Source: Solirubrobacteraceae bacterium
GTDB lineage: Bacteria; Actinomycetota; Thermoleophilia; Solirubrobacterales; Solirubrobacteraceae
Direction of reading: 5' to 3'
Length of the DNA stretch: 62,618 nucleotides
Assembly (NCBI GenBank): GCA_035706585.1
Contig: DASSUW010000451.1
Location: forward strand, 1-62,618
Shown here: positions 5,248-59,527 of the stretch, in pieces
How the letters are laid out: each line of letters begins with the position of its first letter
Numbering within the stretch: position 1 is the stretch's first letter
Translations under genes and position numbers: made by a program
Notes under the pieces: generated by a model
Databases searched by the model: none
The model's input: the letters and a program-made list of their open reading frames with translations, nothing else
What the model was told of the DNA's origin: nothing

Positions 5248-6333
5248 GTGGCGACCGAGATGCGAGCTGCGCGCGGCGCGATCGACGACGCGAAGCTGGA
5301 GGCGTTCGTACACCAGGCGCTCGGCGAGCTGGGCGCGACGCTGAACTCCGCACTGGTGGTGCTCGGCGACCAGCTGGGGCTGTACCGGGCGATGGCCGCC
5401 GCCGGCGCACTCACGCCCGCCGAGCTGGCCGAGCGCACCGGCACGACGGAGCGCTACGTGCGCGAGTGGCTCAACGCCCAGGCGGCCGGTGGCTACGTCC
5501 ACTACGACCCGTCCGACGAGCGCTACACGCTGCCGGCTGAACAGGCGGTGGTGCTGGCCGACGAGGACAGCCCGTACTTCCTGCCGGGCGCCTTCCAGCT
5601 CATGACCGCGAGCGCCGCCGACCACCCGGCGATCGCCGCGGCGTTCCGCTCGGGCGCGGGCGTCGGCTGGCACGAGCACAACCACGGAGTCTTCGAGGGC
5701 TGCGAGCGCTTCTTCCGACCCGGCTACGCAGCGTTCTTGTGCTCGCAGTGGATCCCGGCGCTGGACGGCGTGGAGGCCAAGCTGCGCGCCGGCGCCCGGG
5801 TGGCCGACGTCGGGTGCGGCCACGGCGCCTCGACGATCCTCATGGCCCAGGCCTACCCCGCGTCGACGTTCACCGGGTTCGACTACCACGGCGACTCGAT
5901 CGCCGCCGCCCGCGAGCGCGCGCGGGCCGCCGGGCTCGGCGACCGGGTGCGCTTCGACGTCGCGCCCGCCGCCGGCTACCCGGGCGCGGGCTATGACCTG
6001 GTGTGCACGTTCGACTGCTTGCACGACATGGGCGACCCGGTCGGCGCGGCCCGCCACGTGCGCGCGAGCCTCGACGCCGACGGGACCTGGCTGATCGTGG
6101 AGCCGTTCGCCAACGACCGCACCGAGGACAACCTCAACCCGGTCGGCCGCATCTACTACGCGGCCTCCACGCTGCTGTGCACCCCCGCCTCGCTGTCGCA
6201 GGAGGTCGGTCTCGCGCTCGGCGCGCAGGCCGGCGAGACGCGACTGCACGACGTGATCACCGCGGGCGGGCTGACCCGCTTCCGGCGCGCCGCGCAGACG
6301 CCGTTCAACCTCATCTTCGAGGCGCGGCCGTGA
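5248..6333 (+). CDS. Class I SAM-dependent methyltransferase with N-terminal winged-helix (Rv2258c-like)
   Basis: Motif I VADVGCGHGASTILMAQ. AGGAGGA lies 4 nt before GTG 5248. Confidence 0.8.
   Translation: MATEMRAARGAIDDAKLEAFVHQALGELGATLNSALVVLGDQLGLYRAMAAAGALTPAELAERTGTTERYVREWLNAQAAGGYVHYDPSDERYTLPAEQAVVLADEDSPYFLPGAFQLMTASAADHPAIAAAFRSGAGVGWHEHNHGVFEGCERFFRPGYAAFLCSQWIPALDGVEAKLRAGARVADVGCGHGASTILMAQAYPASTFTGFDYHGDSIAAARERARAAGLGDRVRFDVAPAAGYPGAGYDLVCTFDCLHDMGDPVGAARHVRASLDADGTWLIVEPFANDRTEDNLNPVGRIYYAASTLLCTPASLSQEVGLALGAQAGETRLHDVITAGGLTRFRRAAQTPFNLIFEARP

Positions 6334-52948: not shown

Positions 52949-52962
<14 letters not shown>
52294..52962 (+). CDS. Secreted hypothetical protein, basic C-terminal half
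   Basis: Signal peptide [21 protein letters not shown] from GTG 52294. ORF start 52249 would overlap the divergent GYD start. Confidence 0.55.
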
Positions 52963-55468
<2,506 letters not shown>

Positions 55469-55474
55469 GTCCCT

Positions 55475-55526
55475 AAATCTCAGTCGGTTGGACTAAGATT
55501 TTAGCGTCACTGCTGGTGTTTGCGAA
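55475..55526 (-). promoter_or_regulatory. clpB promoter (-35 TTCGCA, 17 nt, -10 TAAAAT) with a HAIR-like inverted repeat AAATCTTAGTC-N5-GACTGAGATTT
   Basis: Read on the minus strand. The IR is 10/11 and contains CTTAGT-N7-ACTGAG, compared with the HspR consensus CTTGAGT-N7-ACTCAAG. hspR is encoded in this window. Confidence 0.5.
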
Positions 55527-55734
55527 GGCCGTCGCCGTCGGGCAGCAGCAGCGCGAAGGACTCGACCGCGCAGTACAGCGCCGCGATCAGGAACACGTAG
55601 GCGACGAGAGCCGGCACCAGGTTCGCGGATCCGAGCAGGACGAGCGTCAGGATGGGCCAGCGCAGCCGGGACCAGTTCAGCGGTGAGCGATCGGGTTCCG
55701 GCTCAGGTGGTGGCCAGCGGGCATCGACCAGCAT
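55507..55734 (-). CDS. Hypothetical 75-aa two-TM membrane protein
   Basis: MLVDARWPPPEPEPDRSPLNWSRLRWPILTLVLLGSANLVPALVAYVFLIAALYCAVESFALLL.... Moderate GC3 bias. Confidence 0.4.
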   Translation of the reverse strand: MLVDARWPPPEPEPDRSPLNWSRLRWPILTLVLLGSANLVPALVAYVFLIAALYCAVESFALLLPDGDGLRKHQQ

Positions 55735-55772: not shown

Positions 55773-56150
55773 CTAGTCGTCGTCGCCGCCGCCGTGACCC
55801 GAGTGGTCGTCGCCGCCGCCGTCGTCGCCGCCGCGGCCGCGTCCGCGCCCGGAGCTGTCGTCGTCGCCGCCGTGGTCGTCGACCGTCGGCGCGGGGGTCG
55901 GGGCGGCGGTGGGCGTCGCGGTCGGCGTCGGCGTCGCGCGCTTCTTCTTCTTGTTCTTCGGCGGGGGCGTGGGCGTCGCGGTGGGCGTGCGGCTCGGGGT
56001 CGCGGTCGGCACGAGGTCCTCGCCGGCGCTCAGCGGCTCGGACGACAGGCCGACCGGCTGTGACGTCAGCGACGACGCCGCGTACGTCACGCCTGCCACC
56101 AGCAGGACGCCGGCGACGGCGGCAAGCACCCACAGCGCGGAGCGACGCAT
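55773..56150 (-). CDS. Membrane-anchored Pro/Thr-rich protein with a His/Asp/Gly (HGGDDD) tail
   Basis: Signal anchor ALWVLAAVAGVLLVAGV, PTATPTPPPKNKKKKRATPTPTA linker, tail DDHGGDDDSSGRGRGRGGDDGGGDDHSGHGGGDDD. High GC3. Confidence 0.65.
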   Translation of the reverse strand: MRRSALWVLAAVAGVLLVAGVTYAASSLTSQPVGLSSEPLSAGEDLVPTATPSRTPTATPTPPPKNKKKKRATPTPTATPTAAPTPAPTVDDHGGDDDSSGRGRGRGGDDGGGDDHSGHGGGDDD

Positions 56151-56174
56151 GGCTGCACCGTAGCCGGGCCCCGG

Positions 56175-56761
56175 TTAAGCGCCGGGAAAGGCGCCGAGCA
56201 GCGTGCGGAACCGCGCCGCCTCGCGCTCGGGCTGCGTGGTGAGCCGTCGCCAGCTCAGGCGCACGACCTGCAGCCCGGCCTCGAGCAGGTCGGCGTTCCT
56301 TGGCGCGGTCGGCCTGAAAGTCGTCGTGGTAGTCCTCGCCGCCGACCTCGTAGCCCGCCACGACCGCGTTGATCTCCGGCTGCGGCAGGCGATGACGCGC
56401 GCAGAACCACGGGAACGCGTCCTCGAACGCCGACCGCGTCGGCCGCGGCGGCAGCTCATCGAGGCTCAGATGGCCGGCGAGCCGCGCGTCGTTGACCGCG
56501 CGGGTAAGGGCGGCCGGGTCCAGGGTGTGGGCGGTGATCTCGACCGGCCCGGCGTAGCGGATCACGCCCCACAGCTGCGCCGCCGACCGGTGGCTCAGCA
56601 CCGCGCCCGAGCGCGAAGACACCTCGATGCAGGCGGATCAACCGCCCGCTCGTGATCCAGTGATCGATCGCGTCCGGCCCGACCCCGGCATCGAGAAGCT
56701 GGCGTCGGGTGGCGATGCCGTGCTGGGCGGCCGCGAGACGTCGAACGAGCTCCGTGGTCAC
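56175..56761 (-). pseudogene. Frameshifted DUF559 / AbiEi-N-like family gene remnant
   Basis: Family-typical segments sit in three frames: VTTELVRRLAAAQHGIATRRQLLDAGV...RLHRGVFALG, then LSHRSAAQLWGV...RSAFEDAFPWFCARHRLPQPEINAVVAGYEV, then DLLEAGLQVVRLSWRRL. There are also internal deletions. Confidence 0.65.
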
Positions 56762-56854
56762 TTTGGTGCGTATAGAGCCCCAAAACGACCAAACTCGCCC
56801 CCCAACGCCCGCGGCAGACCACCAGGCCAACCCTCACCCACCCCACCCAGCCGA

Positions 56855-56940
56855 AGTTCGCCTGCCGTGCCAGGACGGCCGGCGGAGACCGAGACGCCGC
56901 AGTTCGCCTGCCGTGCCAGCGCGGCCGGCGGAGACGACTA
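56855..56940. repeat. 46-bp-period tandem repeat, 35-nt core AGTTCGCCTGCCGTGCCAGNNCGGCCGGCGGAGAC x2 (33/35)
   Basis: Read directly, immediately 3' of the histidine kinase. The HK stop codon lies at the end of copy 2. Confidence 0.8.
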
Positions 56941-58431
56941 AGCCGCCGGCGGCACCGTCACCACCGCCCGCGCGCCCGCGCCGTCCGCGCGGTTGTCGAG
57001 CGTGACCTCGCCGCCCCAGCGGCGGGCGAGCTCGCGCGCGATCGGGAGCCCGAGGCCGGTGCCGGCCGGGCCGCTGCGGCCCGCGCGGCCGCGGTGGAAG
57101 CGCTCGAACACCGCGGCGAGCTCGTCGTCTCCCAGGCCCGGGCCGCGGTCGAGCACCTCGAGCGTCCCCGGGGCGGAGCGGAGCATCACCTCGCCGTTGC
57201 CGTAGTGCAGGGCGTTCTCGACCAGCGCATCCAGGACCCGGTCGAGGTCGGCGGGCGGGCAGAACCCCTCGGCGGCGACGCCGTCGGCGCGCACGCGGCC
57301 GCCGCCGGTCCCGTCCCAGCGGGCCGCGGCCCGATGCGCCGCGTCCTCGAGGTCCACGTGCTCGGGCGGCGCGTCGACCTCGCCCGCCTGCGAGAGCACG
57401 AGCAGCTCGGAGATGATCGCCGACAGGCGGTCGAGCTCGGCCAGCCCCGCGTCGATCTCCGTGTGCGCGTCCGGATCGCTCGTCGCCGCGCGCGCCTCCT
57501 CGAGCCGCAGGCGCAGGCCCGAGAGCGGCGTGCGCAGCTGGTGCGACGCGTCGGCGATGAACTCGCGCTGGCTCGCGACGAGGCGCTCGATCCGCGCCGT
57601 CATGTCGTTGAACGTGCGCGCGAGGCGCCGCTGCTCGGCGCTGCCCTCGACCCTGGCGCGCGCCGACAGGTCACCGCCCGCGAACCGGTGCACGGCGTCG
57701 TCGAGCCGGTGGACCGGGCCCGCGACCTGGCGGGCGATCAGCGCCCCGGCGAGCAGCCCGAGCACGAGCACGAGCAGGCCGATCGCGATCAGCCCGAGCG
57801 TCGCGCGCCGCGTGGCGCGGCTCACGGCCTGCACGCTCTGGGTGATGCGCACGGCGCCGACGACGTCGCTGCCGTCGGCGATCGGGACCGCGGTGGCGAG
57901 GATCTCCTGCCCGAGCGACTGGCTCGGGCGGCGCTCCTGGTAGACGCGTCGATTCAGCGCGTCGGCGATCTCCGGCCGCGAGCTGTAGTCGACCCCCACG
58001 CGCTCGTCGCCGGCCGAGTCGCTCAGCAGCCGGCCGTTCGGGCCGACCACGATCACGCGGCCGCGCAGGCGATCGGCGGCGACGCGGACGACGCTGTCGA
58101 GCTCGCGGCGATCGCCCGGGTCGACGGTCGCGGCCAGCAGCGCCGCCTGGGTACGGGCCTCGTTGCGGATCTCGTTGTCGACCCGGTCCCGCAGGCTGAT
58201 GATCAGCGGAACCTCCAGCGCGATGATCGCCAGCACGAGCACGTAGGCGAGCGCCAGCAGCAGGCGGAGCCGGAGGCTTACGAGAACTCCTCGGGAGCGG
58301 TGAAGCGGAAGCCGACGCCGCGGACCGTGTGCAGGTAGCGCGGGCGCGACGGATCGTCGCCGAGCTTCTGGCGCAGCCAGCGCACGTGCACGTCGAGCGT
58401 CTTGGTCGAGCCGAACCAGTTCTCGTCCCAC
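56938..58431 (-). CDS. Sensor histidine kinase (TM-sensor-TM-HAMP-HisKA-HATPase)
   Basis: H-box ADASHQLRTPL, NALHYG, DRGPGL, GTGLGLPIAREL. The only canonical start in the ORF is GTG 58431, which overlaps the RR gene by 154 nt. The TM helix begins right at the RR stop. Confidence 0.8.
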   Translation of the reverse strand: MGRELVRLDQDARRARALAAPEARRRSVAPALPAHGPRRRLPLHRSRGVLVSLRLRLLLALAYVLVLAIIALEVPLIISLRDRVDNEIRNEARTQAALLAATVDPGDRRELDSVVRVAADRLRGRVIVVGPNGRLLSDSAGDERVGVDYSSRPEIADALNRRVYQERRPSQSLGQEILATAVPIADGSDVVGAVRITQSVQAVSRATRRATLGLIAIGLLVLVLGLLAGALIARQVAGPVHRLDDAVHRFAGGDLSARARVEGSAEQRRLARTFNDMTARIERLVASQREFIADASHQLRTPLSGLRLRLEEARAATSDPDAHTEIDAGLAELDRLSAIISELLVLSQAGEVDAPPEHVDLEDAAHRAAARWDGTGGGRVRADGVAAEGFCPPADLDRVLDALVENALHYGNGEVMLRSAPGTLEVLDRGPGLGDDELAAVFERFHRGRAGRSGPAGTGLGLPIARELARRWGGEVTLDNRADGAGARAVVTVPPAA

Positions 58432-58985
58432 ACGCGGTCCATCAGCTGCTCGCGCGTGACGACGCGGCCGGCGTGGCGGATCAGCTCGGCCAGCAGGTCG
58501 AACTCCTTGCGGCTGAGCTGGAGCTCCTCCTCGCCCAGACGGGCGCGGCGGGCAGCGAGATCGACGTCGAGGTCGCCGACCACGATCGGCTCCGGCGGCG
58601 CCTCGCGCTCGCCCGGGCCGGGCTTGGCGCGGCGCAGGATCGCGCGGATGCGGGCGATCACCTCGCCGCCGCTGAACGGCTTGACCACGTAGTCGTCGGC
58701 ACCGAGCTCGAGCCCGACGATCCGGTCGGCCTCGGTCCCGCGCGCGGTCAGCATGAGGATCGGGACCGACGAGCTGCGGCGCAGCGCGCGGCAGACGTCG
58801 CGACCGTCGCCGTCGGGCAGCGTGAGGTCGAGCAGCACGATCGCGAAGTCGCCGTCCTCGGCGAGCTCGAGCGCCCGCGTGGCCGTCCGCGCGACGACCG
58901 GCTCGAAGCCCTCGCGCGCGAGCGCCTTCGAGAACGGCTCGTAGATGCTCGCCTCGTCCTCCACGAACAGCACGCGCGGTTTCAC
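58278..58985 (-). CDS. OmpR/PhoB family response regulator
   Basis: VLFVEDE, LLDLTLPDGDG, MLTARG, GADDYVVKPF, C-terminal winged helix LDVHVRWLRQKL...TVRGVGFRF. GTG 58985. Confidence 0.9.
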   Translation of the reverse strand: MKPRVLFVEDEASIYEPFSKALAREGFEPVVARTATRALELAEDGDFAIVLLDLTLPDGDGRDVCRALRRSSSVPILMLTARGTEADRIVGLELGADDYVVKPFSGGEVIARIRAILRRAKPGPGEREAPPEPIVVGDLDVDLAARRARLGEEELQLSRKEFDLLAELIRHAGRVVTREQLMDRVWDENWFGSTKTLDVHVRWLRQKLGDDPSRPRYLHTVRGVGFRFTAPEEFS

Positions 58986-59077
58986 GCCGACAAAGCTAGC
59001 CGCGTGCGCGCGGGCTTTCCCAAGGTTTAACCCGGCGTTGCCGGGCACTTGGCCGCCCGGCGGCGACGCTGGGGAGC

Positions 59078-59527
59078 ATGTTCTCCCGATCCACCATCGC
59101 CGTCGGCGCCGTGCTCGCCGCCCTCGGCGGCCTCGCCGCCGTCGCACTCGCGTCCGGCGGCGACGCCGCACCGACCACGGCCCCGGCGCCGAGCGCCGAG
59201 ACCGACCCACCGGTCCAGGTCCGGACCAAGGTGATCCGCCGCACCGTCCACGTGCGGCCGCACGCCGCCGCCGCCGCGTCGCCGTCCGGCGACGACGACG
59301 GCACGCTCGACCAGGGCCCGGGCGACCGCCCGCAGATCCCGGTGACCGCCGCGCCGCCGGTGAGCGGACACGACGTCGGCGACGACCGCGGCCGGCACCA
59401 CGGCGGGGACGACGACGACTTCGACGACGACCGTTCGGGCCACGGCGGAGGCGACGATGACTCAGGCCACGGCCACGGCGGAGACGACGACCACTCCGGC
59501 CACGGCCACGGCGGAGACGACGACTAG
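59078..59527 (+). CDS. Membrane-anchored/secreted protein with SGHGHGGDDD repeats (paralog of 55773-56150)
   Basis: Signal TIAVGAVLAALGGLAAVALA. Tail RSGHGGGDDDSGHGHGGDDDHSGHGHGGDDD is encoded by an exact 27-nt repeat (59465-59491 and 59498-59524). High GC3. Confidence 0.65.
   Translation: MFSRSTIAVGAVLAALGGLAAVALASGGDAAPTTAPAPSAETDPPVQVRTKVIRRTVHVRPHAAAAASPSGDDDGTLDQGPGDRPQIPVTAAPPVSGHDVGDDRGRHHGGDDDDFDDDRSGHGGGDDDSGHGHGGDDDHSGHGHGGDDD

Follow-up and report, generated by a model that had tools for sequence, protein, structure and literature searches.

What do two small proteins ending in strongly acidic tails do on either side of a two-component system, and how is their production controlled? 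The question is raised by a stretch of 62,618 nt (approximately 72% G+C) from a Solirubrobacteraceae bacterium (GCA_035706585.1, contig DASSUW010000451.1), hereafter the window, in which the genes for an OmpR-type response regulator and a HAMP histidine kinase are accompanied by a divergent open reading frame (ORF) of 149 aa (p149, 59078-59527, plus strand), an ORF of 125 aa on the 3' side of the kinase gene (p125, 55773-56150, minus strand) and a further ORF of 75 aa (tm75, 55507-55734, minus strand). A first-pass annotation had described these ORFs, the tails, a PPPKNKKKKR patch, the regulator and the kinase, all of which we recovered at the same positions, and had proposed that they form an uncharacterised, sensor-regulated extracytoplasmic module for metal buffering or envelope stress. 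What is new here is two undescribed families of apparently disordered proteins together with a cleanly defined operator. As to function, we favour, tentatively and with somewhat less than even confidence, a reading in which regulator-activated tail proteins bind cations or metals and possibly feed back on the kinase. Support is strongest for the regulatory wiring, binding of the operator by the regulator being putative.

The module was compared across 22 related loci (labelled L001, L002, L022 and so on). All 18 loci recovered from species-representative genomes come from Solirubrobacteraceae metagenome-assembled genomes, and the sequencing runs containing the same stretch are soil and rhizosphere metagenomes. 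The order clpB, (tm75), p125, kinase and regulator, with p149 divergent from the regulator gene and hspR-dnaJ-grpE further on, is shared by 22 of 22 loci; the conservation of small ORFs beside the two-component system, on which the first-pass annotation had staked its proposal, is thus borne out. The non-repetitive motifs of these ORFs are conserved at 46-90% identity, changes in tail length keep the reading frame, and the ratio of nonsynonymous to synonymous substitution rates (dN/dS), computed against orthologues for the lineages of the window, L022, L001 and L002, is 0.17-0.51 for p149 and 0.15-0.54 for p125. The G+C content at third codon positions (GC3), previously noted as high for the 2 larger ORFs, is 0.92 and 0.94 for these and 0.84 for the third. 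A word-indexed search recovered 48 relatives of p149 and 463 of p125, and an exhaustive profile search of 1.84 billion proteins extended the p149 family to 260 cluster representatives (E<=1e-3). Because relatives were found, motifs are conserved, tails change length in frame and dN/dS is low, p149 and p125 are, on this comparative evidence, genuine genes representing conserved families under purifying selection. Scans of p149, p125 and tm75 against Pfam and NCBIfam matched no family, in line with the earlier view that the family is uncharacterised, and a literature search on the tail proteins, the two-component system and MsrQ-like clusters with such partners returned no description.

A large predicted-protein collection contains p149 at 100% identity. 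The p125 of the window is not among the predicted proteins of that collection, its best match there being 80% identical; the automatic gene caller apparently either overlooked the ORF or predicted it in another form. In L023, too, a p125-like ORF (about 5300-5680, minus strand) was left unpredicted. Soil metatranscriptome contigs matched conserved kinase/regulator segments only, at 90-95% identity, and derive from other organisms, so that they are uninformative on the expression of p149 and p125.

Both proteins are built from one N-terminal helix, linker-like sequence and a tail. In p149, a signal/anchor helix with a cleavage-like site, AAVALA-SGG (the hyphen marking the site), is followed by the motifs PPVQVRTKVIRRTVHV and DDDGTLDQGPGD and by an acidic tail of 52 aa containing 19 Asp/Glu, 9 His and 16 Gly and ending in ...HSGHGHGGDDD; the family alignment conserves LAAVALA-SGG, ETDPPxQVRTxVxRRTVH and DDDGTLDQGPGD. 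In p125, an anchor helix and the motif AASSL(S/T)xQxxGLSSEPLSAG are followed by a Pro/Thr linker, the basic patch KNKKKKR (the PPPKNKKKKR of the first-pass annotation), a second linker and a tail of 36 aa (12 Asp, 3 His, 14 Gly; end ...HSGHGGGDDD), with LWxLAAVAGVLLVAGVT and AASSLSTQTIGLSSEPLSAG conserved in the alignment. Profile and structure searches, suggested earlier as a check, gave no family model and, with AlphaFold 2 (AF2) run on the family alignments, only the N-terminal helix, at residues 5-25 of p149, with disorder after it, and at residues 2-24 of p125, so that a fold search was not worthwhile. Since N-terminal positive charge precedes the hydrophobic helix in each case, the bulk of p149 and p125 is predicted to lie outside the membrane, either released or anchored, which agrees with the extracytoplasmic placement first proposed; an AxA-like site follows each helix (ALA-SG in p149, TYA-AS in p125). 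Two other assignments were rejected on sequence, namely RTX-type calcium-binding repeats, the GGxGxDxUx register being absent, and lipoprotein or sortase-type sorting, there being no Cys and no C-terminal hydrophobic segment. With no Cys in p149 or p125, neither has a lipobox with the invariant Cys of the LpqB/CseA type.

The first-pass annotation had treated p149 and p125 as paralogues, a claim that survives for the tails and fails for the remainder. Paralogy over the whole length was rejected (BLASTP E=26; HHalign aligned only 23 low-complexity tail columns), and the N-terminal parts represent two different families, the likeness being limited to the tail. At each locus, tails of this type occur in p149 and p125 only, and the last residues of both are almost always GG(D/E)DD. 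Moreover, tail ends are matched within a genome: in one of two clades both proteins end in ...SGHGGGDDD, in the second both end in ...SG(H/Q)GRGRGRGRGGDDD(D), and one genome is mixed, the tail-end type (GH vs GR) agreeing in 19 of 20 genomes. On the tree, this co-variation reduces to about one change per gene, and gene conversion between the tails was not detected at the nucleotide level (identity of 0.59 within genomes vs 0.57 between genomes, permutation p=0.26, with two loci mis-picked by the script). For these two reasons, the matching tail types are suggestive of a common constraint, short of proof. The tail-coding sequence of p149 is itself a tandem repeat (59438-59524, plus strand; 33-nt period, 2.6 copies in Tandem Repeats Finder), the last two units of which share the exact 27-nt core previously reported (59465-59491 and 59498-59524). 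The number of units is 3-4 among the closest p149 relatives read (P0002, P0003, P0005, P0013), and remote family members have EHEYEHE-like tails.

How the two genes are controlled can be read with greater confidence. The direct repeat TTTCCC-N4-YTTAACC is matched exactly twice across the 62.6 kb of the window, against a chance expectation of 0. One, box 1 (TTTCCCAAGGTTTAACC, 59016-59032, plus strand; general pattern TTTSCC-N4-YTTAAC), lies upstream of p149 and is kept upstream of every p149 orthologue examined; the other, the p125 operator box (TTTCCCGGCGCTTAACC, 56173-56189, minus strand), is kept immediately ahead of p125 in almost every locus and also in the remote L023. The boxes are kept in about 25 related loci, and in the related loci the pattern was found only at the two orthologous positions. 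A weaker copy, box 2 (GTTGCCGGGCACTTGGC, 59037-59053, plus strand; GTTGCC-N5-CTTGGC), recognised by eye and hence putative, is located in the conserved block upstream of p149. It is followed at a distance of 11 nt by a -10-like hexamer, GACGCT (59065-59070, plus strand; 7 nt before the p149 ATG), in which A2 and T6 are conserved in all orthologous upstream regions. The p125 counterpart, TACGGT (56157-56162, minus strand), lies 10-11 nt after the p125 box and 6-7 nt before the p125 ATG, and this -10 region, CTACGGTG, is invariant or nearly so across loci. A third -10-like hexamer, TAGCTT (58993-58998, minus strand), lies 7 nt upstream of the regulator GTG at 58985. All three transcription units, regulator-kinase, p149 and p125, lack a Shine-Dalgarno sequence and have such a hexamer at a distance of 6-8 nt from the start codon; because of this arrangement, their transcripts are probably leaderless. 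In remote loci, box 1, box 2 and the 11-nt spacing are kept, the -10 being a better hexamer, GACAAT or AACAAT, and remote p149 relatives have instead a leader of ~35-50 nt with an AGGAGG ribosome-binding site. A scan for the generic sigma-70 consensus returned the clpB promoter only and no classical promoter for the module, which fits activator-dependent promoters without a -35 element. We infer that the adjacent OmpR-type regulator activates p149 and p125 through the box. The earlier description of the module as sensor-regulated is therefore well supported, the same conserved pho-box-like element standing at both tail genes and nowhere else in the window.

In relatives (L001 5860-5876, L012 7841-7857 and orthologous sites), the kinase gene finishes within the p125 box, which supplies its final four codons and stop (TTT CCC NNN NCT TAA, read as ..F-P-x-x-stop), and the box is thus constrained there as coding sequence and as regulatory site at once. 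The insertion present in the window landed between the kinase gene and the box, leaving the p125 promoter intact, and it is now the broken inserted gene that terminates within the box (..GAFPGA and stop). In L017 (9671-9830), the box-containing region upstream of p149 is duplicated, with two TTTCCCAAGCCTTAAC copies 143 bp apart.

The putative activator is an OmpR/PhoB-family response regulator of 235 aa from GTG 58985 (58278-58985, minus strand; Response_reg PF00072, 4.2e-22; Trans_reg_C PF00486, 6.9e-30), 86-93% identical to its orthologues. In the sensor histidine kinase (56938-58287, minus strand; about 449 aa), two hydrophobic segments, the transmembrane helices TM1 and TM2, flank an extracytoplasmic domain of ~132 aa and are followed by HAMP (PF00672, 4.9e-9), HisKA (PF00512, 2.5e-12) and HATPase_c (PF02518, 7.6e-17). 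No NCBIfam equivalog cut-off is reached by the regulator, and scores for named systems fall below their cut-offs (MtrA 203.6/300, CseB 189.2/350, CreB 209.1/273, MtrB 124.3/450, CreC 109.3/356). A sequence search of the PDB with the kinase matched the cytoplasmic part only, with no match for the sensor domain.

In the window, p149 and hspR meet stop codon to stop codon, and dnaJ, grpE and dnaK come after hspR. In most relatives, about 2 kb between p149 and hspR encodes a further small protein, p108, together with ApbE and an MsrQ-like PF01794 cytochrome (for example, L004 10320-12228, L012 10458-12452, L003 8695-10530, L023 8416-10453 and L027 9404-11336). p108, an uncharacterised bitopic protein of 105-130 aa, combines a transmembrane helix and the motif VIVRRVIKRxVV with a Pro/Ala linker and, at its C-terminus, an invariant (L/V)T(T/A/S)xSS, a sequence that does not match the flavinylation motif [S/T]GA[S/T]; its gene overlaps or abuts the apbE start. 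Its homology to p149 spans the helix and the basic-hydrophobic motif (HHalign probability 74%, E 2.8e-5), and in several members of the p149 family a P(L/V)TTxSS motif of the p108 type still precedes the tail. The pattern (L)(G/S)xxEP(L/V)(S/A)A, spotted by eye, had suggested homology of p125 to p108, which was not supported (HHalign probability 0.9%). p108 may be a new ApbE-associated partner or substrate. Neither the [S/T]GA[S/T] flavinylation motif (PMC8238504) nor an FMN-bind domain was found in p149, p125 or p108.

Remote members of the module, on contigs of 65-68% G+C, likewise have kinase and regulator genes divergent from p149-like, p108-like, ApbE and MsrQ-like genes, with a p125-like gene directly after the kinase gene, and some add ferredoxin reductase and ferredoxin. 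The p108, ApbE and MsrQ-like genes are absent from the window as well as from L001, L002/L009, L015 and L019, the ApbE and MsrQ-like genes also from L022, and at least 6 species-level lineages without them (window, L001, L002, L015, L019, L022) keep p149 and p125 intact. Because most relatives and the remote loci carry p108, ApbE and MsrQ-like genes at this position, the window, as judged from gene distribution, holds a trimmed form of an older seven-gene module, its lineage having lost p108, ApbE and MsrQ. A different insertion of ~1.85 kb occupies the p149/hspR junction in L022 (6442-8287) and encodes a secreted signal-peptide protein, frameshifted in the assembly; this junction seems to be a hot spot of gene gain and loss. 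For the actinobacterial clusters of ApbE with an MsrQ-like protein, a role as assimilatory iron reductases has been proposed (Meheust et al. 2021, PMC8238504), and the cluster type is described in PMC8238504 and PMC11334425. Neither these two papers nor the literature searched mentions the tail proteins, p108 or the two-component system.

Remote modules have further neighbours, among them FtsEX, a multicopper oxidase, and SCO1 together with a chaperone of the PCuAC type. The copper-handling genes were seen in L023 (12322-13608: SCO1/SenC, a PCuAC-type, LpqE-like chaperone and cytochrome c) and on the P0306 contig (multicopper oxidase). The copper genes could hint at copper rather than iron, or could be there by coincidence.

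These observations suggest the following mechanism. The kinase, with its extracytoplasmic domain, would phosphorylate the OmpR/PhoB-type regulator, which would then bind the TTTSCC-N4-YTTAAC direct repeat at the position otherwise taken by a -35 element, 11 nt ahead of each -10 hexamer, and switch on two probably leaderless genes, p149 and p125. Their products, tethered to the outer face of the membrane or released from it by a single N-terminal helix and predicted to be disordered elsewhere, may bind cations through the polyanionic Asp/Gly/His (or Asp/Gly/Arg) tails, the likeliest being hard or borderline metal ions (Fe, Cu or Zn, for instance) or bulk divalent ones. The tails would thereby form a layer at the membrane surface in which ions are captured or buffered. 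Being located next to the kinase, the tail proteins might also signal back to it according to how fully they are loaded, as with ZraP or CpxP in Escherichia coli. Ancestrally, p149 was the first gene of an operon with p108, ApbE and the MsrQ-like di-haem membrane cytochrome, an electron-export device, from which the lineage of the window dropped p108, ApbE and MsrQ and kept the sensor and both tail proteins.

We favour cation or metal binding because Asp/His/Gly chemistry persists in p149, because of the ancestral link with ApbE and MsrQ, and because copper genes occur in two contexts. Over the final 40 residues of p149-family proteins, the medians are 4 His, 13 Asp/Glu and 10 Gly, and 110 of 145 members contain two or more His. 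Several observations weigh against this reading. Many p125 orthologues have no His at all, the terminal (GH)n being replaced by (GR)n, and His is likewise missing from 16 of the 145 p149-family tails; because His is not conserved in the 125-aa family, the case for metal binding stays circumstantial. The kinase sensor domain contains 0-1 His and 0 Cys in 8 orthologues, none conserved, and comparison with the heavy-metal systems CusRS/CopRS/CzcRS (TIGR01386, TIGR01387) left both the kinase (125.9 vs a cut-off of 292.55 bits) and the regulator (177.4 vs 279.2) far short. The copper and iron neighbours are found in few contexts and are possibly coincidental, and some factor apart from the neighbouring regulator might bind the box. 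Of the metal-buffering function proposed in the first-pass annotation, the part that stands is thus the retention of His with Asp/Glu in p149 and the ApbE/MsrQ context, whereas p125 His, sensor His and Cys and the heavy-metal cut-offs do not bear it out; the function is plausible and unproven.

A bolder version of metal binding, which we regard as speculative and improbable, would make p149, p108 and p125 a hitherto undescribed class of membrane-tethered, disordered 'fishing lines' that pick up Fe(III) or Cu(II) within the wall zone and pass it to a flavin- and haem-based electron exporter composed of ApbE and the MsrQ-like protein, with the kinase reading tail occupancy and the window keeping the sensing half after loss of the reductase. 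If it were true, the ligand-binding element of the sensor would be a separate disordered protein and not a folded domain.

As the main alternative, the tail proteins could be metal-independent signalling accessories that report envelope charge, as set by pH, ionic strength or cationic peptides and polymers, to the kinase. They could act like the acidic patch of PhoQ supplied in trans, or as inhibitors of the SaeP/SaeQ, CpxP or LiaF kind, and pairing might occur between the basic patch of p125 and the acidic tails, or between these and polymers of the wall. Such a role would account for the position of p125, always directly downstream of the kinase gene, remote loci included, and overlapping the kinase stop codon in L027, for the joining of a strong basic patch and an acidic tail in one disordered chain, and for the fact that p125 conserves net charge and the terminal GGDDD rather than His. 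It also fits the lineages without ApbE and MsrQ, which kept both proteins and their boxes under purifying selection, and the agreement of tail-end types in 19 of 20 genomes would be compatible with a common partner. However, the sensor domain of the kinase is not notably basic, its net charge being near zero, the tail co-variation amounts to about one change per gene with no concerted evolution detected at the nucleotide level, and a pure charge sensor would not need the His enrichment seen in the diverged p149 family. We consider charge sensing a possible explanation, but on the unlikely side.

Dedicated service to the ApbE/MsrQ-like machine, in which p149 and p125 would be docking partners or substrates of ApbE, or electron acceptors once modified, and the copies in the window leftovers, is in our view distinctly unlikely. 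In most relatives, and in every remote locus examined, p149 does head the operon with p108, ApbE and MsrQ, and its homology with p108 and the P(L/V)TTxSS retained by several family members point in the same direction. Yet p149, p125 and p108 contain no [S/T]GA[S/T] motif, and the 6 or more lineages lacking ApbE and MsrQ keep both genes, with dN/dS of 0.15-0.54 (window, L022, L001, L002) and conserved boxes. Finally, the notion that the small ORFs are reading frames open by chance in DNA rich in GC and repeats, which could appeal to their low complexity, the lack of a database family, the uninformative transcript contigs and the missing prediction of p125 in the window, is effectively refuted by motif conservation at 46-90% identity, in-frame tail variation, dN/dS <0.55, GC3 >0.9, conserved dedicated promoter and operator elements and hundreds of homologues.

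On the minus strand, the order in the window is clpB (52949-55468), tm75, p125, a broken AbiEi_4/DUF559-type gene, a 46-nt duplication, kinase and regulator. tm75, 38 nt downstream of p125, contains a hydrophobic stretch of ~40 residues that probably forms a helical hairpin. It has a dN/dS of 0.26-0.38 and is present in 8 of 22 loci, all in one sub-clade; because of this limited distribution, its membership in the module is weaker. Between the tm75 stop and the clpB start lies a sigma-70-like promoter, TTCGCA-17-TAAAAT (55526 to 55498, minus strand), directly followed by an inverted repeat, CTTAGT-N7-ACTGAG (55479-55497), that is kept upstream of clpB in 13 related loci. This repeat resembles the HspR operator HAIR (CTTGAGT-N7-ACTCAAG). 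With HspR-type control of its own, clpB would therefore stand outside the module transcript.

The stretch between kinase and p125 is an insertion, as the first-pass annotation had supposed, since the corresponding gap in L001, L002 and other relatives measures no more than about 25 nt; the insertion occurs only in the window and in its closest relative, L022, and is absent from 20 of 22 related loci. The inserted AbiEi_4/DUF559-type gene (56175-56830, minus strand) is broken into at least 2 frames with stop codons. AbiEi_4 was detected in 56456-56830 (E 3.6e-12) and no domain in 56175-56459; no intact frame with an AbiEi helix-turn-helix and DUF559 is present in the window. Because its frame is broken and DUF559 was not detected, we regard it as a pseudogene. 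The L022 copy matches DUF559 (4.8e-6) and AbiEi_1. The accompanying 46-nt tandem duplication (56850-56941; 2 copies, 83% identical) abuts the present kinase stop and is mostly missing in L022. The C-terminus of the kinase in the window has been remodelled by the insertion and now reads VTVPPAA before the stop, vs ..FPxx in relatives.

The hosts of the module are uncultured soil Solirubrobacteraceae, and the impact of the analysis lies in a regulatory module, not in the solution of a long-standing problem. Nevertheless, a defined operator, putatively leaderless promoters and a small gene set make the module easy to test. Should the tails bind metals or sense charge, a mechanism based on disordered proteins would be added to bacterial envelope sensing, and a way would open into the MsrQ-like/ApbE clusters that are widespread in Actinobacteria yet uncharacterised.

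How does the module relate to systems already described? In the pho box bound by PhoB of E. coli, a direct repeat of ~10-11 bp replaces the -35 element and ends about 10-11 bp before the -10. The geometry of the module box is the same, whereas its half-sites, TTTSCC and YTTAAC, differ, and binding by the regulator is putative. Compared with the MsrQ-like clusters (PMC8238504), the relatives are alike in carrying ApbE and the PF01794 MsrQ-like cytochrome directly after p149, in some cases with a cytosolic ferredoxin reductase and ferredoxin as likely electron donors. However, the described clusters typically include a protein with a flavin mononucleotide (FMN)-binding domain (PMC8238504), the place of which is taken by p108 and p149, with neither FMN-bind nor [S/T]GA[S/T]. 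The window itself differs further in lacking ApbE and MsrQ, so that the combination of PF01794 and apbE is absent from it and present in most relatives.

Close in arrangement are ZraP-ZraSR and CpxP-CpxAR of E. coli, in which a small periplasmic protein is encoded divergently from, and controlled by, its two-component system. ZraP binds Zn through His/Gly-rich termini and represses its own kinase; both ZraP and CpxP are folded, helical LTXXQ/Spy proteins, and ZraR is a sigma-54 activator. The module similarly has a small gene for an extracytoplasmic product divergent from, and apparently activated by, the regulator-kinase operon, but its proteins are predicted to be disordered and helix-tethered, the regulator is of the OmpR type, and there are two tail proteins. 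ZraPSR is also covered in PMC12314577. No Pfam or NCBIfam match placed p149 or p125 in the CpxP/ZraP/Spy (LTXXQ) family, and AF2 predicts disorder after the N-terminal helix.

Similar in terms of disorder are SilE and PcoE, periplasmic metal sponges of the SilRS and PcoRS systems that bind Ag(I) and Cu(I) through His/Met motifs. Like these, p149 and p125 are small, apparently disordered, secreted and putatively metal-binding proteins with genes beside an OmpR-type system. Unlike them, they have tails of Asp, Gly and His without Met or Cys, and the kinase and regulator score below the heavy-metal cut-offs. The Gram-positive three-component systems HbpS-SenS-SenR of Streptomyces reticuli, MtrAB-LpqB and SaePQRS include an extracytoplasmic accessory protein, encoded next to the kinase, that modulates it; these accessory proteins are folded, HbpS being a haem-binding octamer and LpqB a lipoprotein. 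p125 occupies an LpqB-like position after the kinase and p149 a divergent, HbpS-like one, whereas the accessory proteins of the module appear to be disordered polyanions, with no sequence relationship found to those of the three systems. Judged by these comparisons, the module is similar in logic to, but belongs to none of, the ZraP-ZraSR, CpxP-CpxAR, SilE-SilRS, HbpS-SenSR, MtrAB-LpqB and SaePQRS families. Proteins that modulate a kinase are usually folded; here, two conserved and, by prediction, almost fully disordered polyanionic families stand under apparent two-component control.

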